The notes beneath the pieces were generated by a model that was not told where the DNA came from, did no database searches, and saw nothing but the letters and a program-made list of their open reading frames with translations. Source: Nitrososphaerota archaeon (GTDB taxonomy: Archaea > Thermoproteota > Nitrososphaeria > Nitrososphaerales > Nitrosopumilaceae). From it: a stretch of 24,890 bases of DNA. Location of the stretch: contig JACZSC010000008.1 in the NCBI GenBank assembly GCA_022574415.1, forward strand, positions 1-24,890, given 5' to 3'. Shown here piece by piece: positions 1,950 through 23,788 of this stretch (the stretch's first letter is position 1; the number at the start of each line of letters is the position of its first letter). The position numbers and the translations under genes are program-made.

Positions 1950-1985
1950 TTAAAGATGAACCTCCAAGATTAAAATTTAATTTGA

Positions 1986-4754: not shown

Positions 4755-6714
4755 TCAAACCAATCCTTTTTGCACTTGTCCAACGAGCCTTTTTGCCAAA
4801 AAGTTGTTCTAGTGCCTGCCTCAATAGAATAAAATCAAGTATTTGCTTAAATCCGAAAACGAAAAAGACCGAGAATAGTATCAACTTGGGGTCATCTCCG
4901 TCTATTCTCACAGCTAAACTGGTCAGTAGGTATTGAAGGATAATAAAGAACCCGAAGGAGCCTATGACAAACATATAGTCGCCCTGAATTACTGCTAAAA
5001 TCGCGGAACCGAGAATAAAAAAACCAACTATTGGTAAAATTATCATTGAAAGCACCATATACGGAAATGCAAGTCTCTGTAAAAATCCAAAACGTGGATT
5101 TGTAAGTGCATTACGATGTTTTACTACAACTTGAAGATTGCCTCTGTACCAACGTTTCCTTTGCTTGTAGAAATCAATAAGGGCTTTTGGCGCTTCTGTA
5201 TATGCTATTGCTTTGGTGGTTCCTCTTACCACCATCCCAGACTTTAGAATTTTAACTGTTGTATCAAAATCCTCTACAACTGTTTCCTTATCATACCCAC
5301 CAGCTTCCTGAATCACAGATTTTTTAAATGATCCTAAGGCTCCTGGAACAATTGTAATGGCACCAAACATATCAAAAGCTCGTCTGGCAATCTGTAATCC
5401 AGCAACATATTCAAGAGCCTGACACCAAGTAAGCCAATTTACTCTATTTCTTACCTTAATGTTGCCTGCTACCGCAGAAACATTTTCATCATCTTCAAAC
5501 ACTTTAGCAGTTTCTTTTAATGCGGTCTTGCCAATTATGGTGTCTGCATCTAGTACAGCTATGATTTCTCCATTTGCAAAGCTTATGCCATAATTGAGTG
5601 CAGTTGCCTTACCACCGTTTTCTTTATGCAAAACTTTCACACCATCTCGCTCATATCTATTAGCAATCTGTAATGTCTTGTCTTTACTTCCATCGTCCAC
5701 AACGATTATTTCTTTTTTTGTATAATCAGCTTCCAGTACACTTTCTATAGTATTTGCGATTACTTTTTCTTCGTTGTATGCTGGAATAATTACAGTAATG
5801 GTTGGGTAATGAGGCGGATATCGTATTTGCTCTTCTTTGTATTTACTATACAATGACAAGGGAACCATTAACATAACGCTCCAAAAGGTAATTGTAAATC
5901 CCCATAAAATTACTGCTCTATATCCAGAATTCCATAGCGTATATCCTTCATAAGCAAGTACTCCACCAAAAACAAAAGGTAGAACTAGTAGAAGTATAGG
6001 GAAAATACCTGGTAAGTGTTTCTTACGTCTAAATTTTGATTTTGACCACCGTCTTGCATCCAACAGCTGATAAATTACCAAAAATCCGCCAATTATCATT
6101 GCGCCTGTACTAAAACCTGCGACCAAAGCGTATGGTGCCAAGATAAGAAAAGCGAATATCACGCAAGAAATAAGAATCAAAACAGGATCAAGTTTAACTT
6201 TTGGAAGAACCTCTTCTTCTAAATCTGAAACTTGTTTTGTTCCAACTTTTTGAACCTTTTTCTTTTTAGTTACTTCCGGTTTTGGTTCTAACTCTACTAC
6301 TATATCTGACTGTTTTAGAATTGGCTTTTCTTGAACAGTTGATCTGTAACATTCTGCATGATACCATTTTTTCTCATGTCTGATAGTTCGATCATGAAAT
6401 TCTAATTCTTTTTTACAATGGCCGCACCTCGGAATTGTTTCAGATTTTTCCTCTGGTTCTACAACTTTAGAAGACTGTTTTGAAATTGTTTTTACTATTA
6501 TGGCTTTAGTAATTTTTTCTACTGGTTTTACTGTAGTTGCTCTTACTACAGATTCCTTTTTTGAATATGTATTTTCGATTACAGTTTTTTCTCGGATAGT
6601 TGATCTGTAGCATTCCACATGATACCACTTTTTCTCATGCCTGATAGTTCTATCATGAAATTCTAATTCTTTTTTACAAATCTCACATTTTTGAATTAAA
6701 TTCGTATTTTTCAA
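4744..6714 (-). CDS. Processive family-2 glycosyltransferase (PgaC/IcaA/NodC-like polysaccharide synthase) with N-terminal tandem zinc-ribbon modules
   Basis: 656-aa ORF. GT2 signatures are VIIPAYNEE, VVDDGSKDKT, LDADT and the processive-synthase motif QRKRWYRG. Several hydrophobic helices flank the catalytic domain. The N-terminus carries two CxxC...HxEC modules. Confidence 0.88.
   Translation of the reverse strand: MKNTNLIQKCEICKKELEFHDRTIRHEKKWYHVECYRSTIREKTVIENTYSKKESVVRATTVKPVEKITKAIIVKTISKQSSKVVEPEEKSETIPRCGHCKKELEFHDRTIRHEKKWYHAECYRSTVQEKPILKQSDIVVELEPKPEVTKKKKVQKVGTKQVSDLEEEVLPKVKLDPVLILISCVIFAFLILAPYALVAGFSTGAMIIGGFLVIYQLLDARRWSKSKFRRKKHLPGIFPILLLVLPFVFGGVLAYEGYTLWNSGYRAVILWGFTITFWSVMLMVPLSLYSKYKEEQIRYPPHYPTITVIIPAYNEEKVIANTIESVLEADYTKKEIIVVDDGSKDKTLQIANRYERDGVKVLHKENGGKATALNYGISFANGEIIAVLDADTIIGKTALKETAKVFEDDENVSAVAGNIKVRNRVNWLTWCQALEYVAGLQIARRAFDMFGAITIVPGALGSFKKSVIQEAGGYDKETVVEDFDTTVKILKSGMVVRGTTKAIAYTEAPKALIDFYKQRKRWYRGNLQVVVKHRNALTNPRFGFLQRLAFPYMVLSMIILPIVGFFILGSAILAVIQGDYMFVIGSFGFFIILQYLLTSLAVRIDGDDPKLILFSVFFVFGFKQILDFILLRQALEQLFGKKARWTSAKRIGLNES
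6325..6687 (-). repeat. Intragenic duplication: two 102-nt copies (6325-6426 and 6586-6687) encoding the zinc-ribbon module C(G/E)(H/I)CKKELEFHDRTIRHEKKWYH(A/V)ECYRST(V/I)(Q/R)EK
   Basis: The two 34-aa stretches are near-identical and 261 nt apart. Similarity is also obvious at nucleotide level (gaaattctaattcttttttaca...). Confidence 0.9.
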
Positions 6715-7158: not shown

Positions 7159-7289
7159 TTATCTCTAACTAGAAGTATGATTAGTCTTCTGTTACTCGAT
7201 GATTTTTAGATTACGGGAACGAATTTTCATCTAATCTAATTTGTTCATACTCATTCCAGCCATTTTTAGACAAAAAAGGCTCGTTGGCA

Positions 7290-7304
7290 GTTCGTATCGA
7301 ATGT
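7290..7304 (+). repeat. GTTCGTATCAAATGT-family motif copy (GTTCGTATCGAATGT)
   Basis: One mismatch to the consensus. Intergenic, upstream of the left Fic-flanking direct repeat. Confidence 0.8.
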
Positions 7305-7312
7305 GAGCGGTT

Positions 7313-7350
7313 CTATTGAGACTCCGACCAGTTTTGGTATTATTTTAGAC
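7313..7350 (+). repeat. Left copy of ~38-bp direct repeat flanking the Fic gene
   Basis: CTATTGAGACTCCGACCAGTTTTGGTATTATTTTAGAC versus CCATTGAGACCTGCACCATTTATGGGATTATTTTAGAC at 8376-8413. About 30 of 38 positions are identical by eye. Confidence 0.75.
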
Positions 7351-7357
7351 TCAAAAA

Positions 7358-8242
7358 TCAAAGATATCTTCTGTATTCCTTGATGTATCTTTTTATGAGC
7401 CATTGAAGGAATATTCTTTCCTCGTTTTTCACCTGTGATCTTTCCAAGGCATTATAGTAGCTATTTCTTCCCTCATATGGAATATCAAGCATTGGATAGT
7501 TTTTCCTGTTAAGGATAAAGTTCATGACAAGCCTGGTAATCCTGCCATTTCCATCACCGAATGGATGTATTGTAACAAATTTCAGATGTGCCAGTGCAGC
7601 AAGCTCAACTGGATGAATCTTATTCTTGCTTTTGTGGTACCATTTGAAAAAATCTGTCATCATAGGGTATACCTTTACGGGTGAAGGAGGCATGAACTTG
7701 CTACCGCTAATTGCTACTTGGTATTTTCTTATCTTTCCAGAGATGTCGGGTTTTGTCAGATGGAAAAGCTCCCAGTGCCAGTCCAGTATTTCCTGCAATG
7801 ACAAGTCTTTTTTCTGTTTTAGAATTTTATAGAACAGATCCCTGTGGGCCTCGGCTTCTTGTACATCTCTCATTGGTTTGCCTTTTGGTGCAATGCCCCT
7901 TTCCAGAAGATCTGCTGTTTCTCTTCTGGTGAGTGTTGATCCTTCTATCCTTTGGGTATCGTATGTAAATCTGGTGGCAAAATTTTGCAGCTCTTTTTCT
8001 TTGATAGATTTTGGTGCTGCCCTTTGCTCTTTGTAAAAGTGCTTTTTGATTGTATCAATATCATCGTACCATTTTTCTTTGTAGATATCATCAAGAAATT
8101 TTTTCTTGATCTTGATGATGTTTTTTGGGATTTTCGTGCCAAGGTAGAGCTCCTTTTTCTGTACCTTTTTGCCGTCCCTCGTGCTATGTTCTAAATAGTA
8201 GTAGATCTTTTTCTTGAGTATCTTCTTTTTTATGGTAACCAT
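7358..8242 (-). CDS. fic: Fic/DOC-family protein (AMPylase-type)
   Basis: 294-aa ORF containing the canonical Fic active-site motif HPFGDGNGRITR (HxFx[D/E]GNGRxxR). Confidence 0.9.
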   Translation of the reverse strand: MVTIKKKILKKKIYYYLEHSTRDGKKVQKKELYLGTKIPKNIIKIKKKFLDDIYKEKWYDDIDTIKKHFYKEQRAAPKSIKEKELQNFATRFTYDTQRIEGSTLTRRETADLLERGIAPKGKPMRDVQEAEAHRDLFYKILKQKKDLSLQEILDWHWELFHLTKPDISGKIRKYQVAISGSKFMPPSPVKVYPMMTDFFKWYHKSKNKIHPVELAALAHLKFVTIHPFGDGNGRITRLVMNFILNRKNYPMLDIPYEGRNSYYNALERSQVKNEERIFLQWLIKRYIKEYRRYL

Positions 8243-8300
8243 AATATTGGTTACCCCTACATATTTATATAATTTTCATTTTTACTGAAAATGTAGGGGT
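8243..8300 (-). promoter_or_regulatory. Putative Fic promoter: TATA-like box embraced by inverted repeats
   Basis: ATATTTATATAA (8261-8272) lies about 20-30 nt upstream of the ATG at 8242 on the minus strand. The 10-bp inverted repeat ACCCCTACAT (8253-8262) / ATGTAGGGGT (8291-8300) flanks it. A second palindrome, GGTAACC-N8-GGTTACC (8234-8255), covers the start codon. Confidence 0.4.
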
Positions 8301-8375
8301 AAGAATCCGCCAGGATTTAGTTCTACTCCCTAACAGTCATATTCCCTGTATAGGAATTGAACTAAATGGTTGAAT

Positions 8376-8413
8376 CCATTGAGACCTGCACCATTTATGG
8401 GATTATTTTAGAC
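8376..8413 (+). repeat. Right copy of ~38-bp direct repeat flanking the Fic gene
   Basis: See 7313-7350. Confidence 0.75.
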
Positions 8414-8422
8414 CCGTTAACG

Positions 8423-8464
8423 GTTCGTATCAAATGTAATTCAGGTCTAAACGAATTTATCGAT
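8423..8464 (+). repeat. 42-bp flank sequence 'X' (starts with the GTTCGTATCAAATGT motif), identical copy at 23043-23084
   Basis: GTTCGTATCAAATGTAATTCAGGTCTAAACGAATTTATCGAT is 42/42 identical at both loci. Here it abuts the casposon left end. Confidence 0.95.
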
Positions 8465-8465
8465 T

Positions 8466-8518
8466 ATCGATAAAAAGGCAATCCCCCCCTCTCACGAAGA
8501 AAAATGTGACGGGTAATC
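8466..8518 (+). repeat. Casposon left terminal inverted repeat (TIR-A, left)
   Basis: ATCGATAAAAAGGCAATCCCCCCCTCTCACGAAGAAAAATGTGACGGGTAATC. Its exact reverse complement is at 16908-16960. It contains a C7 run that stands out in AT-rich DNA. Confidence 0.95.
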
Positions 8519-8574
8519 TTCGTAACCTTTTTAGCTGAAATGTGCGTAAACCATGGTAGACCGAGGTAAACAAA

Positions 8575-8844
8575 ATGCCAACAATATCAGCAAAACTGTC
8601 AAAGAAAGAACATGATGCAATTGTTGAATATGCAAATGCTTGTGGAGAAACAGTATCTAATCTTGTAAGAAAGGTAATGTTGACTGAGGCTACCTTCATG
8701 AATGGTTATCATGATTCTATGGATTATCACTATGAGATCACAGTTCCTGATAATGTTTCAGGTGAAGAGGAAGATAGAATTGTTTTAGGTGCCTACAATA
8801 AAATTAGAAGAATTTTAGGTTTGAAAGAGCAAGATGAGATTTAA
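8575..8844 (+). CDS. Small ribbon-helix-helix (CopG/MetJ-like) DNA-binding protein
   Basis: 89-aa ORF. The N-terminus MPTISAKLSKKEHDAIVEYANACGETVSNLVRKVM fits a beta-strand/helix/helix RHH pattern. It is the first gene inside the left TIR. Confidence 0.5.
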   Translation: MPTISAKLSKKEHDAIVEYANACGETVSNLVRKVMLTEATFMNGYHDSMDYHYEITVPDNVSGEEEDRIVLGAYNKIRRILGLKEQDEI

Positions 8845-8847
8845 GAA
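8812..8847 (+). repeat. 36-nt direct repeat (copy 1), 3' end of the RHH gene
   Basis: ATTTTAGGTTTGAAAGAGCAAGATGAGATTTAAGAA versus ATTTTAGGTTTTGAAGAGATAGATGAGATTTAAGAA at 9235-9270 (32/36). A third partial copy, AGGATTTGAAGAAATTAATGAGATTTAA, is at 8853-8880. Confidence 0.8.
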
Positions 8848-8876
8848 TTTTCAGGATTTGAAGAAATTAATGAGAT

Positions 8877-9203
8877 TTAATCTACGATTAGTTGAATCCC
8901 TTGAAGAGATAAACCGAAAATAACCATTCCTAGTGGAATATACTTTGTTTTATAATTCCAATAAACTTCAAAACCTCGATGAACTGGGTCCGTTGCTCCC
9001 TTTGGTGTATGAGCCATCTCAATATATGCAACATCTTTTTCTTCCCATCTTTCAAAACCTTTGTTAATTAGATGCTTAGTTTTCCACTTTTTCCAATTAT
9101 TCTCGGTTGGTTTTTTACCATAATACTTTATCATTAGTATAAACCCAAATATCTCACATGCAATTCCAATCACAGCAATAATTTCAAAAGATTCTAAAAC
9201 CAT
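8877..9203 (-). CDS. Small membrane protein (108 aa)
   Basis: N-terminal hydrophobic helix IIAVIGIACEIFGFILMI and C-terminal helix IPLGMVIFGLSLQGIQLI. It is bracketed by the 36-nt direct repeats. Confidence 0.55.
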   Translation of the reverse strand: MVLESFEIIAVIGIACEIFGFILMIKYYGKKPTENNWKKWKTKHLINKGFERWEEKDVAYIEMAHTPKGATDPVHRGFEVYWNYKTKYIPLGMVIFGLSLQGIQLIVD

Positions 9204-9234
9204 ACGATAGAAATTTGCATTGTATTATCTAAGG

Positions 9235-9270
9235 ATTTTAGGTTTTGAAGAGATAGATGAGATTTAAGAA
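9235..9270 (+). repeat. 36-nt direct repeat (copy 2)
   Basis: See 8812-8847. Confidence 0.8.
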
Positions 9271-9317
9271 CACTGAAAATTTGTCAAAACTTGACGATTA
9301 ATAAAATGAAAATTTAG

Positions 9318-9968
9318 TTAACTCTCTATTTTAGTAATTAATTTTTCAAATATTTCAGATGATCCTCTCAATAATTTGTAAAGTGCATCTATGTTTTGAC
9401 CCCTACTTAGCATTCTACAAGAGTAGGTATTTCCAACACTTTCGTAGCGAGGCTGAATATCTATAGAAAGCCAATCATCTAACCTATCATTATCGCCTTT
9501 AGCAGTAAAATGTAATCTGCTTGTTTGTAATGGTCTGCCTATGATTTCTTCAAAATCTTTTTGTATTCTGGAGTCTTCAGATGCTGCAGATATTGACAAA
9601 ATAGCATTTTTATCACTGATATAATTACTCATACAATCTACTTCGTAAAATCTAACAAATTTTTCAAGATTTGTTTTAAAATCACGATTTGAAACTGAAA
9701 AGAATTCTTTCTGTGCTTCAATTAAATTAGTCACCCGCGGATTATGAAAACCAAAAACTAATTTTGAATAATCTGTATAGAATTCTGTATTTTGTTTTGT
9801 AGCATTAATAGATCCTATGCTTGAAGCAGCCATGTTTTTGTAATTTAGTTGGGTTAAGATATCTGTAATTACTATTCTATCAAGAGGCCAGTAAACACTT
9901 TTCAATCTGATGCCTAATCTTTTATCAATGACCCTTTCTCTTTCAAACACAGGAATTTTTTTTGCCAT
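9318..9968 (-). CDS. Hypothetical protein (216 aa), casposon cargo
   Basis: Clean ORF 6 nt downstream of the wHTH gene on the same strand. No motif recognised. Confidence 0.6.
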   Translation of the reverse strand: MAKKIPVFERERVIDKRLGIRLKSVYWPLDRIVITDILTQLNYKNMAASSIGSINATKQNTEFYTDYSKLVFGFHNPRVTNLIEAQKEFFSVSNRDFKTNLEKFVRFYEVDCMSNYISDKNAILSISAASEDSRIQKDFEEIIGRPLQTSRLHFTAKGDNDRLDDWLSIDIQPRYESVGNTYSCRMLSRGQNIDALYKLLRGSSEIFEKLITKIES

Positions 9969-9974
9969 TGTTTA

Positions 9975-10499
9975 TCAAGTTGTACTTATAGGTTGTTGAT
10001 CCATATTCTCATAAGACATATGTGGTCTAATTTTTTGCCTTAGTGTTCCTACTAGAATAGATTCAAATTTTTCTTTGGTGCGTTCCTTTTCTTGATGATC
10101 TTGTTTTGTGATTTCTTCCCAATCTCTTGCTAGTTTGATTTCTGTTTTATCAGATCCCGACACACTTTCTGTTTTTCTTTCACTAGGATACATTATATCA
10201 AATAAGGAATCAAAAACTAATTCTGGAATGTCTGTGACATCATAATACGAAAAACCTTTATTCCCACTTTTTTCGTAAAAATTCTTTACTAAATTACCGT
10301 CTTGTAATTCGTTTAGTCGAATAGTTAAACTACTGGGACTAAATTGAAATTTTTCTTTTATTTCATTAAATGACATCTTTCCATGTTTTAGCAATGCAAT
10401 CAATAATCCAAGATTTTTTTCATCCGAAATCCCTTTTAGTAAAAGCCTTATTTCCTCAGGCATTTCGTTGGAATAATTTAATAGGGTACTAGAGTACAA
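9975..10499 (-). CDS. Winged-helix (ArsR/MarR-like) DNA-binding protein
   Basis: 174-aa ORF. NLGLLIALLKHGKMSFNEIKEKFQFSPSSLTIRLNELQDGNLVKNF fits an HTH plus wing pattern. Confidence 0.55.
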   Translation of the reverse strand: MYSSTLLNYSNEMPEEIRLLLKGISDEKNLGLLIALLKHGKMSFNEIKEKFQFSPSSLTIRLNELQDGNLVKNFYEKSGNKGFSYYDVTDIPELVFDSLFDIMYPSERKTESVSGSDKTEIKLARDWEEITKQDHQEKERTKEKFESILVGTLRQKIRPHMSYENMDQQPISTT

Positions 10500-10534
10500 T
10501 TTTCTGAATCTCAGTACAATTTCTTGTATTTTGT

Positions 10535-10544
10535 ATATTTATAA
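10535..10544 (+). promoter_or_regulatory. TATA-like box upstream of 10565..11098
   Basis: ATATTTATAA is centred about 25 nt upstream of the GTG start, consistent with a leaderless archaeal transcript. It lies in a 65-nt divergent intergenic region. Confidence 0.3.
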
Positions 10545-10564
10545 TTTGTTATGATATTAATCGT

Positions 10565-11098
10565 GTGAGTGGCCGTTGGGAAAAATACAATCGGAGATTA
10601 GAGAAGGAGTTTGAACCTCTTAAAAGAGTCATGACAATGACTATCTACGGATCGTATTATCCTCAATCAGAAAAAGACTTTCTAATAAGTCAGAGAGATT
10701 TTTTGAGAGACAAAGGATATGAAAATACGAATATTGTAGATGATTATCCTGATCCTGAACCTGATATAACTTCTTTAGAAAAAAGTATAAGATGTTTAGA
10801 ATTTTCTGATGTTAATTTTTTAGTTTTTACTAGAGAAGGAAAACGGTATGGAGTGTCAAGAGAATTAACACATATTGCAACATCAAGTAGAATGATTGAT
10901 AAAATACCTTTTTGTACCGTATTTGAACAAGTTAGAGATGAAAGAGATTCCATACCACCACTGTCTCTTGACGATATAAATAATTCAGGAATTAATAGAC
11001 GAGAATTTGAAACTGAACAACAATTGCAAACTGCTTTATCCCAACAATCTTTTGCAAAACTAAGGAGATTACAAAATACATTAATCAAACGCCTATAA
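10565..11098 (+). CDS. Hypothetical protein (177 aa); weak resemblance to nucleoside 2-deoxyribosyltransferase/TIR-like Rossmann proteins
   Basis: GTG start. The pattern MTIYGSYY ... SDVNFLVFTREGKRYGVSRELTHIA loosely resembles the strand/helix layout and G..xE motif of that fold. Not a secure call. Confidence 0.5.
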   Translation: MSGRWEKYNRRLEKEFEPLKRVMTMTIYGSYYPQSEKDFLISQRDFLRDKGYENTNIVDDYPDPEPDITSLEKSIRCLEFSDVNFLVFTREGKRYGVSRELTHIATSSRMIDKIPFCTVFEQVRDERDSIPPLSLDDINNSGINRREFETEQQLQTALSQQSFAKLRRLQNTLIKRL

Positions 11099-11164
11099 TT
11101 AATCGATATAGTCTTAATGTATAAAGTACCTTAATGTATTTTGAATTGATATAATTCAAAAATA

Positions 11165-12946
11165 TCAAACAGAGTGTTTATCAAAATAATTTAATGATAA
11201 AGGAAATGATTCATTCATAATTTTCTCATCAATAGACTTGATTTGCCCTAACCATAATCTTTTACGATCGGCATTAAGATTAACTTCTCTTTCATATTCT
11301 TTGATCTTACCAATCTCTGAAATGTTATCCTGTAAAATAGAAGAACGAAGTCTAGCACTACGAAGCAATCTAATTTTCATAATTAGTTTTCCATCTTTTT
11401 CATATGTCTGAAGATTTTCAATGTCTCGAGTTCCAAGTCTACCGAGACCACGTTGTTTCCATTTTCCATTATAACGATAAAATCCATTTTGTAAATAGAA
11501 AACATCATCAGCAGTATTCTCAAAAGAAAACTCACCTAATCTATTTGAATCAATATCTAGAAATTTTGTGACGCAAAGACTGTCAGTTGCAAAACTTACA
11601 ACATATCGTTCCAAGCCATATTTTTGCACAAATTTGTATAATTGAGCACGAGTTATGCCTGTAATTGTGGCAAAAATAACAGGATTAAATAAATTTCCTA
11701 TTTTAAATCGAATTCGCTCACCAGTTTTTCCATAGATGGAGTTTAGAATTATTTTAATTGGTAATTGTAGTGGATTCTTGTTTTGTTTTAGTTGTAATCT
11801 TTTTGTGTACATTTTTTCAATAAAATCTTTGAATGGAAAAAATTCTTTATCGGGAATAAATTGAAATGATTTCAAAATTTTATAATTAATGTTTTTACAT
11901 GCTCGTAACTCAGCCAGTGTGCAATAAGTTTGAAACTTTCCTGATGGGAATATAATAATATTATTTGCACGGAAAGGTAATGGTGGAATATATTTACAAT
12001 CAGAAATATTTACTTTAATTTTAAAAAAACCAAGCGTTGCATCACTTTGAATTTTATTTGATGATATCCATTGACCTTTTGTTATATCAGGAATTTTTGT
12101 TAATGCATGTGGATATGCTGAATTAATATCATAAAGATAAGCGGTTCCTATGTAGCCACGTTTTAGAATTTCAAATCTTCCACCAAAGTAACTCCTGTAA
12201 GCTAAATCTTGTATTTCATATGGTATGCAATCAAACTTTGGAATTTCAATATGATTATTGATTAGAACTTTTTCTGCAAGGTAACCAGAACTAATCCATC
12301 GTGCAGGATAAAATGAAAACGCATTATGAAATAAATTTATCCAGTGCTGTGATAATTCTTTAGTATATTTACAATCTGCAATACAATAATTTCTAACTTT
12401 AGTTTTATTTCTGTTATAATATCTTGGTGAAAATTGTGTACGTTCTTTTTTCATTAAAAGATAATCATTAGGTAGATCCTCAATGTTCTGTTGATATGCA
12501 TTAATCAATGAAGTATGATAGAACTGTGCAATATCAAAAAAGATAGAACTATGATGTCCTTTTCTGATGGCTAATTTCCTACTAGGAATATAATCTAGAG
12601 TATAGTCACCATAATGAAATCTCAATAATCCTGTCTTCTTGTAGGAATTGAGCTCTTCACCTAGCAGTTTGAGAATGACTTCAGCATCATAGGTGATATT
12701 ATAGAAAAAGTTCCATGCTCCTTGAAATTTCTTAGAAAATAGGAATTTTAGGCATGATCCAGGCGTGATTTTATCAAGGAATCGGCCATCAGAATCAGCT
12801 ATGAGGAAAGGAGTTCCCTCGTAGGTCTCAGTATCAAGACCATAAACTGTTCTAAGACTAGAACAAGCAAACCGCCTATCTTGATGAACTTTGGTTCGCA
12901 GTCTTCTAAGATCTTTGTAATCTGTTATGGGGATGGATTCTGCCAT
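11165..12946 (-). CDS. polB: Protein-primed family-B DNA polymerase (pPolB)
   Basis: 593-aa ORF. Exonuclease motifs: ExoI YGLDTETY, ExoII NITYDAEVI, ExoIII YCIADCKY. Polymerase motifs: A LYDINSAYP (DxxSxYP), B KIILNSIYGK (Kx3NSxYG), C SFATDSL (variant of YxDTDS). The compact size is typical of protein-primed PolBs. Confidence 0.92.
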   Translation of the reverse strand: MAESIPITDYKDLRRLRTKVHQDRRFACSSLRTVYGLDTETYEGTPFLIADSDGRFLDKITPGSCLKFLFSKKFQGAWNFFYNITYDAEVILKLLGEELNSYKKTGLLRFHYGDYTLDYIPSRKLAIRKGHHSSIFFDIAQFYHTSLINAYQQNIEDLPNDYLLMKKERTQFSPRYYNRNKTKVRNYCIADCKYTKELSQHWINLFHNAFSFYPARWISSGYLAEKVLINNHIEIPKFDCIPYEIQDLAYRSYFGGRFEILKRGYIGTAYLYDINSAYPHALTKIPDITKGQWISSNKIQSDATLGFFKIKVNISDCKYIPPLPFRANNIIIFPSGKFQTYCTLAELRACKNINYKILKSFQFIPDKEFFPFKDFIEKMYTKRLQLKQNKNPLQLPIKIILNSIYGKTGERIRFKIGNLFNPVIFATITGITRAQLYKFVQKYGLERYVVSFATDSLCVTKFLDIDSNRLGEFSFENTADDVFYLQNGFYRYNGKWKQRGLGRLGTRDIENLQTYEKDGKLIMKIRLLRSARLRSSILQDNISEIGKIKEYEREVNLNADRKRLWLGQIKSIDEKIMNESFPLSLNYFDKHSV

Positions 12947-13251
12947 ATAGCATCAGGAATTGAAACTTCTTGTCCTCGCTTTCGTTTTCCAAATTGTCTT
13001 CTAATATCTAAATATTTTAAGTCAGGAAAATTATCTCGGATTAATCTAATGTAACGATGGTATTTTTCTAAAGATGATGAACGTTTACTAACTTTTGGTT
13101 CAGGTGCAACAGTTACTTTTGTTTGTTTTTCTAATCTTTCTAATGCTTTTTGTGTTCTGGAACGAAGTATTCGTACTTCATTATTATTTGGAAATAACTT
13201 TAATGCATCAAGTCTTTTTAAAAGTTTATTTCTTTGTTCTTCTAAACTCAT
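12925..13251 (-). CDS. Hypothetical basic protein (108 aa) immediately upstream of polB
   Basis: Overlaps the polB start by 22 nt, indicating operon coupling. Lys/Arg-rich. No motif recognised. Confidence 0.6.
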   Translation of the reverse strand: MSLEEQRNKLLKRLDALKLFPNNNEVRILRSRTQKALERLEKQTKVTVAPEPKVSKRSSSLEKYHRYIRLIRDNFPDLKYLDIRRQFGKRKRGQEVSIPDAIWQNPSP

Positions 13252-13280
13252 AGTATCACCAAAAAAATATGAAGGTTAGT

Positions 13281-13622
13281 CTAGGTTTTTCCTAGACTAA
13301 ATCTTCGTATTGGTCTATTGTTTCTACTTTTGTCAAGATAGGTCTCGATTGTAAGTTTATCACCAATTTTGATAATGTTGTCTTTACCACCTCTAGTCCA
13401 CTGATTTAGGAGTGAACTGTTTTTTGATTCATGGCTTTTTAGAGGAACAACAATTGTATTCCATTTGTTATTCTCAAAGATTTCAGCTTCAACATTGATA
13501 GAATATTCTGTTTCAAATGTTTCAAGCTCTTTTACACGAATCTTTATTGTGTCTGGTTTGTCTTTGTCTTTGCTTTTGTATTGCCCCCACTTTAAAAAAG
13601 GAGGATAAAGAGAATCACTCAT
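13281..13622 (-). CDS. Hypothetical protein (113 aa), polB operon
   Basis: Its start overlaps the stop of the upstream AbrB-like gene by 4 nt (ATGA). The sequence looks beta-rich. No motif recognised. Confidence 0.6.
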   Translation of the reverse strand: MSDSLYPPFLKWGQYKSKDKDKPDTIKIRVKELETFETEYSINVEAEIFENNKWNTIVVPLKSHESKNSSLLNQWTRGGKDNIIKIGDKLTIETYLDKSRNNRPIRRFSLGKT

Positions 13623-13822
13623 TTTGGAATTCTCCTTTTTGTTTTGATGGGAGTTAGAATCAATCTCCCATCTTGTGACATGGAAACATTTACTTCCATG
13701 TTTTTACTGAGATAGTTCTCAGTGAATGTCTTGGGCAAAGTTACCACTTTAGAAAAATTCATGGTACTGACTTTTCTTGTGCCCAAGTCTAGATTTTTGA
13801 CTATGGATTTTACTTTAGACAT
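13619..13822 (-). CDS. AbrB/SpoVT/MazE-like swapped-hairpin DNA-binding protein
   Basis: 67-aa ORF. SKVVTLPKTFTENYL...VSMSQDGRLILTPI matches the (V/I)T(I/L)PK ... G.(I/L)(I/L)L.P pattern of AbrB-type domains. It is the first gene of the leftward polB operon. Confidence 0.5.
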   Translation of the reverse strand: MSKVKSIVKNLDLGTRKVSTMNFSKVVTLPKTFTENYLSKNMEVNVSMSQDGRLILTPIKTKRRIPK

Positions 13823-13872
13823 ATTATGCTGTTAGTAAATACCTTAAAATGGGATACTAATGTAGCCCACTT

Positions 13873-14559
13873 ATGGAACTGACCTACGGTATTGGACCAA
13901 ACAAAACCAAGTATTGCAAATTTAAGGCTAAAAACTCTGAATTTGTTTACGATATTGACGGAATTCGCAAAGGAAAAAGATTCAAACATGAACAACGCCG
14001 AGAATTAATTATTAATATTATTGCAAGAAATCACATTAGTCATAATCATTTACTACATCTTACAACAGCATTAGGAAAAATTGCAAAAAAAACTACAGTA
14101 AAAATACTCAAAGAACTAGAAGATGATCGACTAATTGAATCAGAGCAGGAAGGAAATAGTTCTAATTCTATAAAAACATGGATGATAAAATCACCAGAAT
14201 CTGAAATTGAGAAACATGCAAAAAAAGAAACACAAAACATCATTGCAAGTTTGCAAGAATACATTCAAACCATAGAGAAAAAATTTGAAAAACTAAACCA
14301 AGTTGAAAAAGATTATGCAATGGCCAATCTTTTAGACATATTACATAGTTGGCAACCAATTATTGAAATTATAAATCATGACACTAGAATTAAAAATGAA
14401 AAGAAAAAGTTTGACTCTCTTCTAAATCAAGCTTATAATATTTTAAAATATGAAAAACGTGATGGTATAGATACAAGATCATTTTTGCGTAGGTTACTGC
14501 ATCTTAAAGCATCAGAACCAATGGTTATTATGAATAATTTTTTAGAGGAAATTAAATGA
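13873..14559 (+). CDS. Putative winged-helix protein with helical C-terminal domain
   Basis: 228-aa ORF. ISHNHLLHLTTALGKIAKKTTVKILKELEDDRLIESEQ is HTH/wing-like. The stop overlaps the start of the next gene by 4 nt. Confidence 0.55.
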   Translation: MELTYGIGPNKTKYCKFKAKNSEFVYDIDGIRKGKRFKHEQRRELIINIIARNHISHNHLLHLTTALGKIAKKTTVKILKELEDDRLIESEQEGNSSNSIKTWMIKSPESEIEKHAKKETQNIIASLQEYIQTIEKKFEKLNQVEKDYAMANLLDILHSWQPIIEIINHDTRIKNEKKKFDSLLNQAYNILKYEKRDGIDTRSFLRRLLHLKASEPMVIMNNFLEEIK

Positions 14560-15125
14560 ATGACTTTACACCTAATCCATTAGTTTTACAAGAACTTGAA
14601 AAAGTCAGTCAAGTTTGGGATAACCTGATAGAAAACATGCATACAAAATCGAATAAAGATAGAATTACATCAATTCTAGTTCAAGTAATGCTTGAGTACT
14701 ACATTGATAGAATTTTGATTATTAACAAAGTTGATTCGCCTAAGAAAATTTACAAGATGAGATATGATAGTACACTCGAAAAATTAAAAGAACTCAATTT
14801 AATTGATAACAACCTTGAACATGACCTGCTGAATTTCTATGAAATTAGAAACATATATGCACATGAAATTGAAATTCATGAAAAACAGATTTTGGATTTA
14901 GTTAATGGTGTTAAAACAGTAAAGGACCCTACTAGATTTATAGAGAAAGATAGATTTCAGCAAGTTTTTCAAATTATTTTACGGCAAGTTCAGAGAACAT
15001 TTGAAGCAGTTCTAGTTAGGGAACAAGAAAAAAGTGAAGAAAATACTCACTCTATATCTCAAAATAATTCTTCTTTTTCACGTAATAGTCTACGATATTG
15101 TGAACAGCAATTTTGGCTATTGTAA
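14556..15125 (+). CDS. HEPN-superfamily (MtlR/DUF4145-like) protein
   Basis: 189-aa ORF. LEKLKELNLIDNNLEHDLLNFYEIRNIYAHE carries the Rx4H HEPN signature in the context typical of MtlR-like HEPN domains. The last ~24 codons run antisense through a cas1 3' relic, so the C-terminus may be chimeric. Confidence 0.5.
   Translation: MNDFTPNPLVLQELEKVSQVWDNLIENMHTKSNKDRITSILVQVMLEYYIDRILIINKVDSPKKIYKMRYDSTLEKLKELNLIDNNLEHDLLNFYEIRNIYAHEIEIHEKQILDLVNGVKTVKDPTRFIEKDRFQQVFQIILRQVQRTFEAVLVREQEKSEENTHSISQNNSSFSRNSLRYCEQQFWLL
15052..15123 (-). pseudogene. Relic of a second, diverged cas1 3' end
   Basis: It translates to ITIAKIAVHNIVDYYVKKKNYFEI*, against the intact Cas1 C-terminus ITIAKIAVQNLVEFCTGKQKEFRI*. 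Nucleotide identity is nearly complete over ACAGCAAT(T/C)TTGGCTATTGT. Homology stops exactly at the TAATCCTGAAAATTC motif (15124). Confidence 0.8.
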
Positions 15126-15144
15126 TCCTGAAAATTCTTAATTC
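15124..15144 (+). repeat. AATCCTGAAAATTCTTAATTC motif copy
   Basis: Exact consensus, directly abutting the cas1 relic. Confidence 0.85.
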
Positions 15145-15271
15145 ATAGTTTGAGATAGAAACTTTATGCCTGTCTGTGAAAAATGCGGTCAGCCAGCTTC
15201 TCAATGTATTACATGAGATGAAGCGAAGGGCGTAACTAGAATACATTATTTTTGCAAAAATCATAATCCAA

Positions 15272-15291
15272 AATCTGAAAATTCTTAATTC
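15272..15291 (+). repeat. AATC(C)TGAAAATTCTTAATTC motif copy, promoter-like
   Basis: AATCTGAAAATTCTTAATTC, followed by TTAGTTTCAACTAGAAAATTCATG. The same leader precedes the ATG at 23977. Confidence 0.85.
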
Positions 15292-15312
15292 TTAGTTTCA
15301 ACTAGAAAATTC

Positions 15313-15552
15313 ATGACCGATGATAAAAAAATGAAAATCATGTGCAAATGGTGTAATGTTTCTAAAACCTGTCACATCGTTAGTCAAGAAATTACAGATC
15401 ATCATGGACACTATGGGATAGATAGTGTTATGATGGCCAAAGTCAAAATTCACAAGCATTTCAAAGGAAAAAATTACTGCAAAGGCTCAGATAGAACAAT
15501 TACTGTACCTCTAGATAAGATACTAAAAGATAATGAAAAGAATAGAGATTAG
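15313..15552 (+). CDS. Small Cys/His-rich protein (79 aa)
   Basis: CKWCNVSKTCH...DHHGH...CKG. Preceded by the conserved leader and followed immediately by the AGATTCTAAACTCTTTTT relic. Confidence 0.55.
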   Translation: MTDDKKMKIMCKWCNVSKTCHIVSQEITDHHGHYGIDSVMMAKVKIHKHFKGKNYCKGSDRTITVPLDKILKDNEKNRD

Positions 15553-15568
15553 ATTCTAAACTCTTTTT
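15551..15568 (+). repeat. AGATTCTAAACTCTTTTT: copy of the cas1 stop-codon region
   Basis: Identical to 15773-15790, which encodes the last Cas1 codons KEFRI* on the minus strand. Confidence 0.85.
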
Positions 15569-15770
15569 TTCACAAAAATTAATGAAAAACGTGCTCAAGT
15601 GTTCGTACCAGTGCGTATTCTCGGATCAAAGTCAAACAGTAAACCTTTATCCACTTACTCGAAATGTTTGACTATGGGAGTAGGTCGAACACAAAGACAT
15701 TATTGTAACAAGTGTCATCTAAAACGCCCTAAATGTATCTGTAAAAAACAGTAAACGAGATTAATAATTC

Positions 15771-16850
15771 TTAGATTCTAAACTCTTTTTGTTTTCCAGT
15801 ACAAAACTCAACTAAATTCTGTACAGCAATCTTGGCTATTGTTATTTCATGACAAGACTTTAGACCGTCTTTGGTCTTTGCTCCATGTTTAGACGCATAG
15901 CGTCTTTCTTTCTGGAATGTTCTTTCAAGTAATTCTAAGAACCGTCTAATCAAATTATAGTCTAAAACAACTAAACCCTCTTTTGTAAAGGCGTAATCTT
16001 TCTTGTAGATTCTATGCTCTTTATTGGTTTCATTAGCTAACATGTATGCAGAATAATCAACAAGCCATCTGAACGGCTCTATCAAGTCATAAACTAACGG
16101 CTGAAAACTAATGTGTTCTTTGTGATAGAATCCAAAGTATGCATCTAGACCCATTCCGTTGATATATTTGGAAATCTCTCCAGCTAAAACCGAATAGCCG
16201 TAATTCAAAAGCCCATTAATGACATCACTAGCAGTTCTTTTTGAAATCTTCTGACTAGACTGATTTCTTGAAACAAATCCATGCCTTTCAGGAATTAGTT
16301 TTGAATATTCAATAAAGTACGCTCGACCAGAACCAGCCTCTAAACCCAATTCAGAACGTATTGAAACTTGTCTTAGATTACCCTCAAGAGTTTCAATTCC
16401 TAAATTCAAGTCAGTCCTTTCTACAGACTTTAAGAATCTGATCTGCGATTGTAATTTTGCTTTAACAATCTGCTTTGAAAGGTATCTTCTCTTTTCTGTA
16501 TCCCTAAAGGTGTCATACTGAGCCATTCGATATTTTGTCGCAGTGTTTGATTCCATTACACCATTAATCATAGAAACTGGCTTTCCGTAGGTATCTAGTA
16601 GAATAAGATTTCGATTATGTTGATTTAGTAGGCTCATGGCTTCGGTTGAAACGTAGCCTTTACCAGATAGAACGATTTTTTCATAAGGAAGATTATTGAT
16701 GAACCATTCTTCTGATTCGGATTCTTTGAATGGGTCGTAATTGTTCTTTAGAACAAGTTTGTTATCTTTTACAGAAACAGAAAAGCCGTAACCCTTGAGA
16801 AATTTTACGTTGTAATGACTGTGTTGACCTTTCTGCGTCATAACGCACAT
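15771..16850 (-). CDS. cas1: Cas1 homologue (casposase-type Cas1-solo)
   Basis: 359-aa ORF. Cas1 signatures are ILLDTYGKP (N-terminal beta domain), GLEAGSGRAYF (catalytic Glu region), NGLLNYGYSVL, and YFGFYHKEH...LVYDLIEPFR (catalytic His and Asp/Glu). A C-terminal extension is present. The gene ends 58 nt from the right TIR. Confidence 0.93.
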   Translation of the reverse strand: MCVMTQKGQHSHYNVKFLKGYGFSVSVKDNKLVLKNNYDPFKESESEEWFINNLPYEKIVLSGKGYVSTEAMSLLNQHNRNLILLDTYGKPVSMINGVMESNTATKYRMAQYDTFRDTEKRRYLSKQIVKAKLQSQIRFLKSVERTDLNLGIETLEGNLRQVSIRSELGLEAGSGRAYFIEYSKLIPERHGFVSRNQSSQKISKRTASDVINGLLNYGYSVLAGEISKYINGMGLDAYFGFYHKEHISFQPLVYDLIEPFRWLVDYSAYMLANETNKEHRIYKKDYAFTKEGLVVLDYNLIRRFLELLERTFQKERRYASKHGAKTKDGLKSCHEITIAKIAVQNLVEFCTGKQKEFRI

Positions 16851-16907
16851 TTGATCAAAATTATTACTTAACGAATTTCCAACAAATCATAACGTGCATT
16901 ATAACGT

Positions 16908-16960
16908 GATTACCCGTCACATTTTTCTTCGTGAGAGGGGGGGATTGCCTTTTTATCGAT
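16908..16960 (-). repeat. Casposon right terminal inverted repeat (TIR-A, right)
   Basis: Exact reverse complement of 8466-8518. Subterminal direct sub-repeats (C/T)ATAACGTG x2 lie at 16887-16908. Confidence 0.95.
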
Positions 16961-16961
16961 T

Positions 16962-17040
16962 ATCGATAAAAAGGGAAAGTCCCCCTCCCACGCACGAATT
17001 ACGCTTATGACTTGCGTTATGACGTGAGTTGGTTTGTTGG
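16962..17040 (+). repeat. Diverged casposon-type end (TIR-B) lying head-to-head with TIR-A right
   Basis: ATCGATAAAAAGGGAAAGTCCCCCTCCCACGCACGAATTACGCTTATGACTTGCGTTATGACGTGAGTTGGTTTGTTGG. It shares with TIR-A the ATCGATAAAAAGG terminus, a C-rich block, two CG(C)TTATGAC sub-repeats and a terminal ...TTTGTTGG (cf. CCAACAAA at 16879). Confidence 0.8.
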
Positions 17041-17051
17041 AAAGGTTAACA

Positions 17052-17066
17052 GCTCGTATCAAATGT
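17052..17066 (+). repeat. GTTCGTATCAAATGT-family motif copy (GCTCGTATCAAATGT)
   Basis: One mismatch. Preceded by GTTAACA, as the 8423 copy is preceded by GTTAACG. Confidence 0.8.
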
Positions 17067-17104
17067 TAATTAGAATAAAAAAGAGAAAGGATTTTAGGTT
17101 CTGA

Positions 17105-17572
17105 TTACGGAGCTGGTCTCATCGAAACATCTGCGTTTCCAAATCCGCCACCTGAAACCCAGAAGTTTTGTACTCCATTAAATGCATTACCGTCAATGTC
17201 CTTGGTGTTTATTGCTACAACGACTTTGTGTGTGGAACCATCACTAAATGCTGCTTCAAAAACCACAATGCCCATACCAGTACTGGTAGGACCGCCTGGT
17301 GGACAACACATGACGGTGATCAATTTGGTTGCGTGCCAATTACCTGAAGTACTTGTAGCAGCAAATGAACCTCCTGCTCCTATTTGGCCACCCTTTTTCC
17401 AAGCTCCTTGACCCGACATATCGATTCTTGGCGTGTCCCCATCCGAGAAACTAAAGGCTACAGCGCCTTTTGGAGTCGGAGAGGGAGCGTAAGCTTGTTG
17501 TGCCGAAAAGAGAAGCATGATGGCTATTCCAGCAATTATGGATGCTATTAGAATTGTTTTTGCCATGCCCAA
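17105..17572 (-). CDS. Small secreted/anchored Gly-rich protein (155 aa)
   Basis: N-terminal helix MGMAKTILIASIIAGIAIMLLF. Visibly more GC-rich than its neighbours. No motif recognised. Confidence 0.65.
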   Translation of the reverse strand: MGMAKTILIASIIAGIAIMLLFSAQQAYAPSPTPKGAVAFSFSDGDTPRIDMSGQGAWKKGGQIGAGGSFAATSTSGNWHATKLITVMCCPPGGPTSTGMGIVVFEAAFSDGSTHKVVVAINTKDIDGNAFNGVQNFWVSGGGFGNADVSMRPAP

Positions 17573-17684
17573 CCGATCACTTGATCCTGAGACTAATTAA
17601 TGATGATCTAATGTGATTCATTTCATAATTTCATTATAACGCTAGTCATGAGGCATAAACCGTTCATCAAATGTCTCATTTACA

Positions 17685-17699
17685 GTTCGTATCAAATGT
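17685..17699 (+). repeat. GTTCGTATCAAATGT motif copy, with degenerate copy CGTTCATCAAATGT at 17661-17674
   Basis: Exact consensus in tandem with a degenerate copy 24 nt upstream. Confidence 0.8.
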
Positions 17700-17819
17700 C
17701 AACAGAATTACCGAACTGTCTACTCTTTTAAGACCCACCCCATTTTTGGTTTTAATTTGGAACCTATCTAAGCAAATTTTATTCCGGGTCTAGAAAATTA
17801 TCAAACATTTCTTTTGTTC

Positions 17820-22012: not shown

Positions 22013-22065
22013 AACTAATCTATGATATTTGAATTTATATGTGATATTAACGCAAGGATAATAAT

Positions 22066-22109
22066 CTAAGAATTAAGAATTTTCAGGATTAATAGTTCGT
22101 ATCAAATGT
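22066..22109 (-). repeat. Composite repeat (AATCCTGAAAATTCTTAATTC motif + GTTCGTATCAAATGT motif), inverted partner of 23918-23960
   Basis: The reverse complement ACATTTGATACGAACTATTAATCCTGAAAATTCTTAATTCTTAG matches ACATTGATACGAATTGTTAATCCTGAAAATTCTTAATTCTTAT, with 1 indel and 3 mismatches. Confidence 0.85.
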
Positions 22110-22153
22110 AAAAGTGATAAAAAATAGATGAAACACTATACTATTGAAAAGCA

Positions 22154-22984: not shown

Positions 22985-23042
22985 TCTTCTAAATAATTAT
23001 CTTTGAAATTTGATTATTCAGACTAGAACAAATCTGTTGACA

Positions 23043-23084
23043 GTTCGTATCAAATGTAATTCAGGTCTAAACGAATTTATCGAT
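23043..23084 (+). repeat. Second copy of 42-bp flank 'X'
   Basis: 42/42 identical to 8423-8464. Confidence 0.95.
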
Positions 23085-23165
23085 AAAGAGTGAAAATAGA
23101 ACTTCCCTCTCCGACGCACAAATTCCTATTATAACTATCGTTATGACGTGAGTTTGTTTTGTTGG
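23079..23165 (+). repeat. Solo casposon-type end (TIR-B'), related to 16962-17040
   Basis: ATCGATAAAGAGTGAAAATAGAACTTCCCTCTCCGACGCACAAATTCCTATTATAACTATCGTTATGACGTGAGTTTGTTTTGTTGG aligns along its length with TIR-B (shared CGACGCAC/CCACGCAC, CGTTATGACGTGAGTT, TTTGTTGG). No partner end and no cas1/polB are nearby. Confidence 0.8.
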
Positions 23166-23483: not shown

Positions 23484-23527
23484 TAAGTTCTAAATTATCT
23501 TTTTGTAATCCTGAAAATTCTTAATTC
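23484..23527 (+). repeat. cas1-3'-end-like relic fused to AATCCTGAAAATTCTTAATTC motif
   Basis: TAAGTTCTAAATTATCTTTTTGT (cf. TTAGATTCTAAACTCTTTTTGT at 15771-15792) is followed directly by AATCCTGAAAATTCTTAATTC (23507-23527). Confidence 0.7.
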
Positions 23528-23623
23528 ATTTCTGAAATAAATGTCGAATTAGGTCATTTTGTTAGATTTCAGTGGGTATTGCCTTTTATTGAGAGTAAAA
23601 AGACAAAGCACTAGGAATAAGAT

Positions 23624-23773: not shown

Positions 23774-23788
23774 ACATTCAATACGAAC
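23774..23788 (-). repeat. GTTCGTATCAAATGT-family motif copy (GTTCGTATTGAATGT on minus strand)
   Basis: The plus strand reads ACATTCAATACGAAC. Confidence 0.7.

Follow-up and report, generated by a model that had tools for sequence, protein, structure and literature searches.

The 24.9-kb contig JACZSC010000008.1, which is an entire GenBank metagenome-assembled genome (MAG) contig assigned to the Thaumarchaeota and is referred to below as the window, raises the question of whether a segment that is bounded by inverted repeats, and that carries genes for Cas1 and a family-B DNA polymerase (PolB), is a casposon, and if so whether it is still capable of movement. The analysis described here indicates that positions 8472-16954 very probably represent a family-1 casposon, intact and autonomous, whose thaumarchaeal host belongs to the Nitrosopumilales. 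It is a well-preserved further example of the family-1 elements described in 2014 (Krupovic et al., PMC4046053), the biochemistry of which was reported in 2021 (Wang et al., PMC8464041), and not a new type of element.

Boundaries of the element

The original prediction placed perfect 53-bp terminal inverted repeats (TIRs) at the ends of the segment. A direct string test confirmed that 8466-8518 and 16908-16960 are exact reverse complements of each other, and a repeat search of the window revealed inverted arms at 8456-8518 and 16908-16970 (63 nt, 98% complementary, far above chance), the sole mismatch of which falls within ATCGAT-T-ATCGAT. However, in each 53-nt arm the outermost 6 nt belong to a direct repeat of 13 bp, nearly palindromic, that is identical at the two ends (13/13) and constitutes the target-site duplication (TSD), leaving perfect TIRs of 47 bp (47/47) and a casposon proper of 8,483 bp (8472-16954). 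The boundary features are as follows.

8459-8471, no strand assigned: left TSD, ATCGATTATCGAT, 13 bp, the same as 16955-16967
8472-8518, plus strand: left TIR, 47 bp, AAAAAGGCAATCCCCCCCTCTCACGAAGAAAAATGTGACGGGTAATC, score of 34.5 against a position-specific scoring matrix (PSSM) for TIRs, reverse complement of 16908-16954
16908-16954, minus strand: right TIR, on the Cas1 side, 47 bp, with the Cas1-side subterminal motif TGATTTGTTGGAAATT, common to relatives, on its inner side
16955-16967, no strand assigned: right TSD, ATCGATTATCGAT, the same as 8459-8471

Assignment of the borders to 8472 and 16954 stems from comparison with related loci. Identical 13-bp repeats also flank the element ends in relatives L002, L004, L007 and L029, and junctions in which two TIRs are separated by 13 bp are present in L002, L004, L007, L029, L030 and L031. 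The TIR of the window casposon itself bounds the L029 element, where its start, AAAAA(A)GGC, immediately follows another 13-bp repeat, ATCGATAAAGAGT, found on both sides, and is present also in L030 and L031; the terminal consensus AAAAA(G/T)(G/A)G..CCCCCC is common to the related elements. Additionally, the TSD of the family-1 casposase of Nitrosopumilus koreensis (NitAR1) has been determined experimentally as 13 bp, located after a leader that ends in TTT (PMC8464041). The window leader likewise has a terminal TTT, and the first and last bases of the TSD are A1 and T13 (GAATTT followed by ATCGATTATCGAT), consistent with the NitAR1 rules. A model with a 7-bp TSD (TATCGAT) and an element at 8465-16960 was rejected, given that the L029 TIR follows a canonical 13-bp TSD without ATCGAT, and is contradicted also by the 13-bp repeats in three other relatives. 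The GC content of the casposon is 0.314, compared with 0.377 in the left flank and 0.334 in the right flank.

The Cas1 protein

The gene that would encode the integrase lies beside the right TIR.

15771-16850, minus strand: cas1 (casposase), 359 aa from the first ATG, PF01867 7.7e-46, GenBank MCH8833014.1

The prediction of a full-length Cas1 homologue between the arms was borne out by profile matches to PF01867 and TIGR00287 (151 bits against a cut-off of 71.7) and by an intact set of catalytic residues, comprising E171 (GLEAG), H243 (GFYH) and E258 (DLIEPFR). None of the CRISPR-subtype Cas1 models reaches its cut-off with this protein. The true start is probably M4 at 16841, which yields the 356-aa form that is also the GenBank protein, close in length to the NitAR1 casposase of 347 aa (PMC8464041). 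The Cas1 domain occupies residues 20-309 of 359 and is the sole Pfam domain, with no C-terminal helix-turn-helix (HTH) or Zn domain. Among solved structures the best match is the M. mazei casposase 6OPM (3.7e-33), in an alignment that covers the catalytic motifs and stops at residue 321 of 431, before the C-terminal HTH of 6OPM. More than 1,000 Cas1 homologues were recovered with E <1e-20, many of them 60-93% identical; those traced to genomes are all from Nitrosopumilales, and the close homologues with enough flanking sequence adjoin genes for protein-primed family-B polymerases (pPolBs).

Fragments resembling the 3' end of cas1 are also present, one of these being within the following open reading frame (ORF).

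15052-15264, minus strand: ORF with a Cas1-like C-terminus (Cas1 3' stub), 70 aa, C-terminal ITIAKIAVHNIVDYYVKKKNYFEI copying the last ~26 residues of Cas1, where the sequence is ITIAKIAVQNLVEFCTGKQKEFRI

Stubs of this kind (..ITIAKIAV..KEFRI and stop) are located at 15052-15135 and 15549-15568 inside the casposon and at 24306-24328 in the right flank, with two more in L029, and suggest that recombination or exchange of cargo has recurred immediately downstream of cas1.

PolB and the conserved core genes

The polymerase gene and three small genes occupy the centre of the element.

11165-12946, minus strand: polB, protein-primed-type family-B polymerase, 593 aa, PF03175 (DNA_pol_B_2) 1.3e-25, MCH8833007.1
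12925-13251, minus strand: candidate terminal protein, basic, 108 aa, overlapping the polB start by 22 nt
13281-13622, minus strand: conserved family-1 core gene, 113 aa, syntenic homologues in L002, L004, L007 and L008
13619-13822, minus strand: conserved family-1 core gene, AbrB/MazE-like, 67 aa, syntenic homologues in L002, L004 and L008

PolB, like Cas1, passed the profile check, scoring 90.7 bits against PF03175 (cut-off 25.8), and also matches the viral polymerase family phrog_11768 (1.4e-61). The original prediction of a polymerase with all exonuclease and polymerase motifs holds for ExoI (D38xE), ExoII (N83..YD), ExoIII (Y187..D), motif A (D273..SAYP) and motif B (K398..NSIYG), but not for motif C, which is non-canonical and is considered below. 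BLASTP with the phi29 polymerase gave a weak alignment from motif A to motif B (E 0.006), and no significant match was found among PDB sequences. A KTRG motif like that of piPolBs was entertained and dropped: KQRG at 497-500 is offset from KxY in a by-eye alignment to the phi29 sequence, in a region left unaligned by BLASTP.

The window PolB is 48-65% identical at the amino acid level to the PolBs that adjoin Cas1 in L002, L004, L006, L007 and L008, and in the same five loci homologues of the 12925-13251 product (32-54% identity) are encoded directly upstream of polB, the position of the gene proposed, as a hypothesis, to encode the terminal protein (PMC4046053). The AbrB/MazE-like product has a sub-threshold MazE/PemI match (1e-3), and its homologue in L030 carries a weak MazE_antitoxin Pfam mark. 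Cas1, PolB and a trio of small genes make up the five-gene core that defines family 1 (PMC4046053; PMC6563490), and the core of cas1, ORFs 13619, 13281 and 12925, and polB is retained in L002, L004, L007 and L008 with the small genes in the same order. The compact Cas1, the PF03175 PolB, the three small genes, the TIRs with a shared consensus and the 13-bp TSD after TTT together support the interpretation of the segment as a casposon.

Landing pads and solo terminal inverted repeats

The casposon is not the only trace of integration in the window, and the sequences that would have served as targets are present in more than one copy.

8416-8458, plus strand: leader or landing-pad flank, comprising an 18-nt site core at 8420-8437, AATT, an ef-2 3'-tail mimic CAGGTCTAAACGAATTT (SGLNEF..) and a TTT end
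16968-17071, plus strand: solo TIR2, an older Cas1-side casposon end, PSSM score 36.7, truncated at a copy of a 26-bp site at 17046-17071
23036-23165, plus strand: second landing pad, comprising a leader at 23036-23078, a TSD ATCGATAAAGAGT at 23079-23091 and a solo TIR3 from 23092 to ~23165

The two leader copies (8416-8464 and 23036-23084) are identical at 47 of 49 positions. In each, ~31 nt that resemble the ef-2 tail (CAGGTCTAAACGAATTTATCGAT.., which reads SGLNEFID..) precede the TIR, the pads being at 8443-8471 and 23063-23091. The 3' end of ef-2 is the commonest published family-1 target, although not a universal one, and in L002, L003 and L004 the leader beside the TSD is a real ef-2 3' end (..NEFID(R/K)E and stop). 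The window contains no EF-2 coding sequence beyond a 7-residue match to NEFIDKE, and hence the insertion is not at the 3' end of an ef-2 gene. An origin of the 18-nt site core, which precedes the tail, in diverged ef-2 coding DNA was rejected, as likeness to four real ef-2 3' ends is confined to the last ~31-36 nt. The same leader is present in four metagenome contigs (L015-L018) and in L029, in several upstream settings that are unrelated to one another, in each case without ef-2 upstream and in each case followed by a different TIR; leader and TIR scans of viral contigs found nothing.

The TSD of the second pad matches the NitAR1 TSD, ATTGATAAAGAGT, at 12 of 13 positions. TIR3 has a PSSM score of 30.6, the pad belongs to repeat families D14 and D18, and L015 represents the same locus (98.6% identity). 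TIR2 carries the Cas1-side subterminal motif TTTGTTGGA and TIR3 is likewise of the Cas1-side type, with no cas1 behind either; TIR2 is cut off exactly at the 26-bp site, at the expected position of the Cas1 start codon. TIR2 shares 85% identity with the terminus of an intact element (L027/L028), the Cas1 of which is 93% identical. Since the leaders are identical at 47 of 49 positions whereas TIR2 and TIR3 are only 76% alike, the arrangement fits two target copies that were invaded independently. The presence of second or third full casposons to the right was rejected: the PSSM detects only four ends, and tblastn and blastn detected no Cas1 or PolB remnant outside 8.4-17.0 kb. Tandem arrays and solo TIRs are already known for casposons (PMC4779613; PMC6563490). 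From the order of leader, TSD, new element, TSD and older end, insertion of the casposon took place at the TSD nearest the leader, in front of an older element of which the solo TIR2 is what remains.

Related elements

One of the related loci is L029, an ENA contig of 4,802 nt. The element at ~138-4495 of this contig (4.4 kb) has the same TIR, is flanked by ATCGATAAAGAGT, lacks PolB and is opposite in orientation to the leader; its Cas1 is 85% identical to that of the window and carries Gly where the DLIEPFR motif has the catalytic Glu. The L029 element is probably a derivative that is non-autonomous or in decay. That the same TIR is present there in another orientation and context indicates that this lineage has moved. 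Other relatives are mosaic. In L031 the window type of TIR accompanies a PolB gene of 76% nucleotide identity, while a Cas1 gene of 92% nucleotide identity is located behind a different TIR, and L030 combines the window type of TIR with PolB and Cas1 genes of 84% and 71% nucleotide identity, respectively, and an OLD nuclease.

Separate observations were made in two further loci. At ~9800-10000 of L006, from a Nitrosarchaeum relative, the ef-2 frame loses its tail after ..RKRKGLAP, ~30 nt before the usual stop and ~170 nt before cas1, which suggests a different ef-2 insertion point for the subgroup in which PolB is inverted relative to Cas1. L012, a 924-nt contig with a coverage of 0.6 in the Rosenbergiella sp. 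YN46 assembly, carries the 3' end of a thaumarchaeal Cas1 gene (93.6% nucleotide identity to the window) and two 26-bp sites, and is almost certainly contamination of the bacterial assembly.

Preservation and mobility of the copy

The identity of the TIRs (47/47) and TSDs (13/13), together with the full-length genes, suggests a young insertion, and it is plausible from the sequence that the casposon is recent and possibly active. Nevertheless, a number of observations weigh against an intact, autonomous family-1 element. The search for an empty site in relatives that had been envisaged as a check recovered none: the leader 21-mer retrieved four metagenome contigs, all of which are occupied by a TIR, so that current activity is no more than plausible. 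The TSD matches that of NitAR1 at only 7 of 13 positions and lacks both A11 and the ATAA ruler, which indicates either a casposase with somewhat different rules or a sub-optimal site. Motif C of PolB (residues 452-456) reads FATDS, in which Ala replaces the first Asp of YxDTDS. Some archaeal pPolBs are stated in general terms to vary within motif C, with the casposon paper among the citations and none of the enzymes characterised (PMC5695915). FATDS is present also in the PolB homologue of L004, and is therefore not a private defect of the window copy, but it leaves polymerase activity and protein priming as predicted properties of this PolB. Placement of Cas1 in the family-1 clade is likewise a prediction, based on synteny and similarity. 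Finally, linkage to CRISPR was judged within the edges of the contig.

Several of these points would suit a genuine family-1 casposon that is nonetheless a fixed, immobile copy, intact because it is young or tolerated by the host. Neither an empty site nor an excision product was found, the TSD deviates from the NitAR1 determinants, motif C is non-canonical, decayed ends (TIR2 and TIR3) are located nearby, and the related L029 element has lost PolB and the catalytic Glu of Cas1. Conversely, the perfect TIRs and TSDs, and five core ORFs that are full-length in comparison with those of relatives, argue against decay of this copy, as does the shared FATDS of L004. A fixed copy is accordingly regarded as unlikely, albeit a possibility to be taken seriously, and the element at 8472-16954 is preferentially read as an autonomous casposon.

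The 26-bp site and a possibly modular neighbourhood

The leader described above begins with a sequence that recurs throughout the window. An 18-nt core, ACAGTTCGTATCAAATGT, is present seven times, at 7287-7304, 8420-8437, 17049-17066, 17682-17699, 22092-22109 and 23040-23057 on the plus strand and at 23774-23791 on the minus strand, in copies that are sharply bounded and have unrelated flanks. The consensus site spans 26 bp, ATTaACAGTT-CGTATC-AAATGTtAAT, and forms an imperfect palindrome in which arms of 10 bp surround an asymmetric centre of 6 bp, an architecture that would be that of a dif- or att-like core site for a tyrosine recombinase. Copies in the same orientation are present in L016 (four), L018 (three) and L012 (two). 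A structured RNA or tRNA relic was rejected, there being no Rfam match, no tRNA and no consistent or stable fold. A string search of the literature did not find the site, and eight single matches of a 17-mer motif, in large unrelated viral contigs, were taken as chance.

Copies of the site bracket single-gene units at 7287-8437 (Fic, 7358-8242), 17049-17699 (ORF 17105-17572) and 22092-23057 (FNR-type reductase, 22154-22984). The FNR unit is a presence/absence polymorphism bounded by the site: in L029 the sequence of 22063-22109 is joined directly to the ef-2-tail leader without this unit, which is missing from L016 also. The ef-2-tail pad follows the 26-bp site in five of six contexts, and both TIR2 and the solo TIR of L016 end at the site where cas1 would start. 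The gene in the second of these units is as follows.

17105-17572, minus strand: Gly/Ala-rich ORF with a signal-like N-terminus, 155 aa, local GC peak of 0.45 compared with ~0.32 around it, no family match; a putative secreted GC-rich protein

It is conceivable, although on balance doubtful, that the region around the casposon is modular and was assembled by a second recombination system, as yet undescribed, acting at the 26-bp sites. A related reading, in which the casposon unit is, or once was, moved as a passenger of a larger module system, with the segment between the 49-bp leader copies (8416-8464 to 23036-23084) exchanged by a tyrosine recombinase at dif-like sites, is improbable; under it Cas1 would not be the sole route of mobility. 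The six copies in the same orientation that bracket the Fic, 17105 and FNR units, the structure of L029 (upstream sequence, site and tail, minus the FNR unit), a Phage_integrase gene located 1.1 kb from a site copy in L017, and the regular position of the ef-2-tail pad after the site would all be accommodated by such a scheme. However, the window contains no recombinase, the palindromy of the site consensus is only 9/14, homologous recombination between short repeats gives the same polymorphism, and the clean TIR and TSD borders are fully explained by Cas1 integration. Were shuffling by a Xer-like enzyme or integrase nonetheless to take place at these sites, it would explain the detachment of the target from ef-2, the multi-copy pads and the casposon ends truncated at sites (TIR2 and L016), and the region would represent an archaeal platform of modules, resembling integrons or pdif systems, that is coupled to landing pads for Cas1.

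Other repeats were noted in the neighbourhood. A 39-nt repeat (family D20), at 7312-7350, 8375-8413 and 17724-17762, adjoins copies of the 26-bp site and comprises a small hairpin with compensatory changes (CCATttATGG / ACCAgtttTGGT / CCAtttttGG) followed by ATTATTTTAGAC, with a terminator-like appearance. Towards the contig edges, a 614-aa pentapeptide-repeat protein with 15-nt periodicity is encoded at 105-1949 on the minus strand, and a partial ORF at the right edge (24330-24890, minus strand) contains 66-nt (22-aa) coiled-coil repeats (..AQREADRLAKQEAKQLQ..). A 93-nt direct repeat (6326-6418 and 6587-6679, 90% identical) in the N-terminal part of a GT2 glycosyltransferase gene (4744-6714) is an internal duplication of a Cys-rich module.

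Cargo genes and absent functions

The remaining genes of the casposon are considered to be cargo.

8575-8844, plus strand: ribbon-helix-helix (RHH)-like DNA-binding protein, 89 aa, DUF6290 6e-5 and NikA-like 2e-4, both below the gathering threshold
8877-9203, minus strand: unassigned cargo ORF with a hydrophobic N-terminus, 108 aa, no family match
9318-9968, minus strand: unassigned cargo ORF, 216 aa, no match in Pfam, NCBIfam, PADLOC or PHROGs
9975-10499, minus strand: winged-helix DNA-binding protein, 174 aa, DUF7346 1.7e-8, 35.2 bits against a cut-off of 28
10565-11098, plus strand: unassigned cargo ORF, 177 aa, no family match
13873-14559, plus strand: cargo ORF, 228 aa, weak DnaD-like PHROG match (8e-4), partly kept in L030
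14556-15125, plus strand: cargo ORF, possible HEPN-type nuclease, 189 aa, DUF4145 3e-3 and HepT 1.8e-3, both sub-threshold

Three DNA-binding genes had been proposed to lie inside the element. The winged helix-turn-helix (wHTH) assignment stands, DUF7346 being above its gathering threshold, and the same ORF has weaker matches to MarR and Csa3-type wHTH proteins; the RHH and AbrB-like assignments have sub-threshold matches only. A fragment homologous to the RHH-like ORF is present at the same end of the L029 element. In the possible HEPN-type protein an Rx4H motif, RNIYAH, begins at residue 98. A 22-27-nt motif, (T)AATCCTGAAAATTCTTAATTC, is common to the casposon interior and the right flank, with copies at 15120-15146, 15267-15293, 23503-23529 and 23931-23957 on the plus strand and at 8838-8858, 22063-22091 and 24358-24388 on the minus strand, and is present also in L016, L017 and L029; its location ~25-35 nt upstream of the start codons (ATG) of ORFs 15313 and 23977 makes it a probable shared promoter of mobile elements.

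Pfam scans covering 30 ORFs of the window detected neither cas2 nor a DDE transposase, nor any recombinase of the tyrosine or serine type, and the window contains no tRNA, CRISPR-like array or Rfam family, its tandem repeats being confined to the coding sequences of the pentapeptide and coiled-coil ORFs. The corresponding claims of the original prediction were thus upheld by the Pfam and array searches. These negative findings bear also on two further explanations. A pPolB gene between TIRs is a hallmark of linear protein-primed replicons, so that an integrated linear virus or plasmid of the His1/His2 type, as opposed to a transposon, might be envisaged, particularly given the strong match of PolB to a viral PHROG and the many ORFs without annotation (at least six). 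No PHROGs or Pfam match to capsid, packaging or other virion families was detected, however, and the Cas1-type 13-bp TSD borders and five-gene casposon core render this explanation very improbable. That Cas1 is part or a remnant of a CRISPR-Cas adaptation module with no transposase role is scarcely credible, since, despite the strong generic Cas1 profile matches and the GenBank name 'CRISPR-associated endonuclease Cas1', the contig lacks cas2, any other cas gene and a repeat array, no subtype model passes, and the gene is located with a pPolB gene inside a unit delimited by TIRs and TSDs, as it adjoins pPolB in relatives with enough flanking sequence.

Discussion

By analogy with characterised casposases, the Cas1 of the window element would bind the 47-bp TIR ends and join their 3' ends to the two target strands 13 bp apart. 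The target would comprise a leader ending in TTT and a 13-bp segment, with the joints made at the junctions between leader and TSD and between TSD and spacer, and gap repair would then duplicate the 13 bp. The actual target in this instance would have been a detached ~31-nt copy of the ef-2 3' tail, and not the ef-2 gene, with the element landing on the leader side of a casposon end that was already in place and is the present solo TIR2. Following the 2014 model, the casposon would be copied by its own PF03175 polymerase, with priming probably at the TIR ends by a terminal protein, for which the product of 12925-13251 is the candidate.

The closest described systems are NitAR1-C1 and the Nitrosopumilus family-1 elements (PMC4046053, PMC8464041), which share with the window element a compact Cas1 lacking an HTH, a pPolB, three small genes, TIRs and a 13-bp TSD. 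Unlike NitAR1-C1, the window element is located behind a detached ef-2-tail copy, and not in or beside ef-2, and its cargo consists of a wHTH protein, an HEPN-like ORF and several unknowns. NitNF5-C1 and NitNF5-C2 of Ca. N. adriaticus (PMC6563490) likewise display repeated use of one target, spacing by the TSD only and element-specific nuclease cargo, whereas here the second member is a solo TIR end, and a further solo end is located 6 kb away behind a second target copy. The family-2 casposons of M. mazei, for which mobility has been demonstrated in vivo, have in common with the present element an integrase of the Cas1 fold, tandem arrays and solo TIRs at preferred sites (PMC4779613, PMC6977970, PMC10359463). 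They differ in having a PolB of the RNA-primed type, a Cas1 with an HTH at its C-terminus, an HNH nuclease, a TSD of ~14 bp and targets in tRNA-Leu or intergenic regions. Pipolins (PMC5695915) are also self-synthesising and encode a PF03175-type PolB with a motif C that lacks the first Asp, but they have tyrosine integrases and SxTTDG and KTRG motifs, whereas the window casposon has FATDS and there is no Phage_integrase match in the window. CRISPR adaptation by Cas1-Cas2 employs similar integrase chemistry at a leader, with a fixed-length duplication and new insertions on the leader side; in contrast, the window has no Cas2 or repeat-spacer array, and what is inserted is an element of 8.5 kb that would replicate itself.

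Among living systems, family-1 casposons most closely model the transposon thought to be ancestral to CRISPR adaptation, and in conceptual terms this copy adds little to those already described. It does provide a clean set of substrates for biochemistry, comprising perfect TIRs of 47 bp, a TSD exact over 13 bp and, on one contig, two natural target variants that match the NitAR1 TSD at 7 of 13 and 12 of 13 positions. It indicates, moreover, that the ef-2-tail target can be detached from ef-2 and be present in multiple copies, and the polarity of insertion, with the new element placed between the leader and an older end, parallels spacer acquisition.

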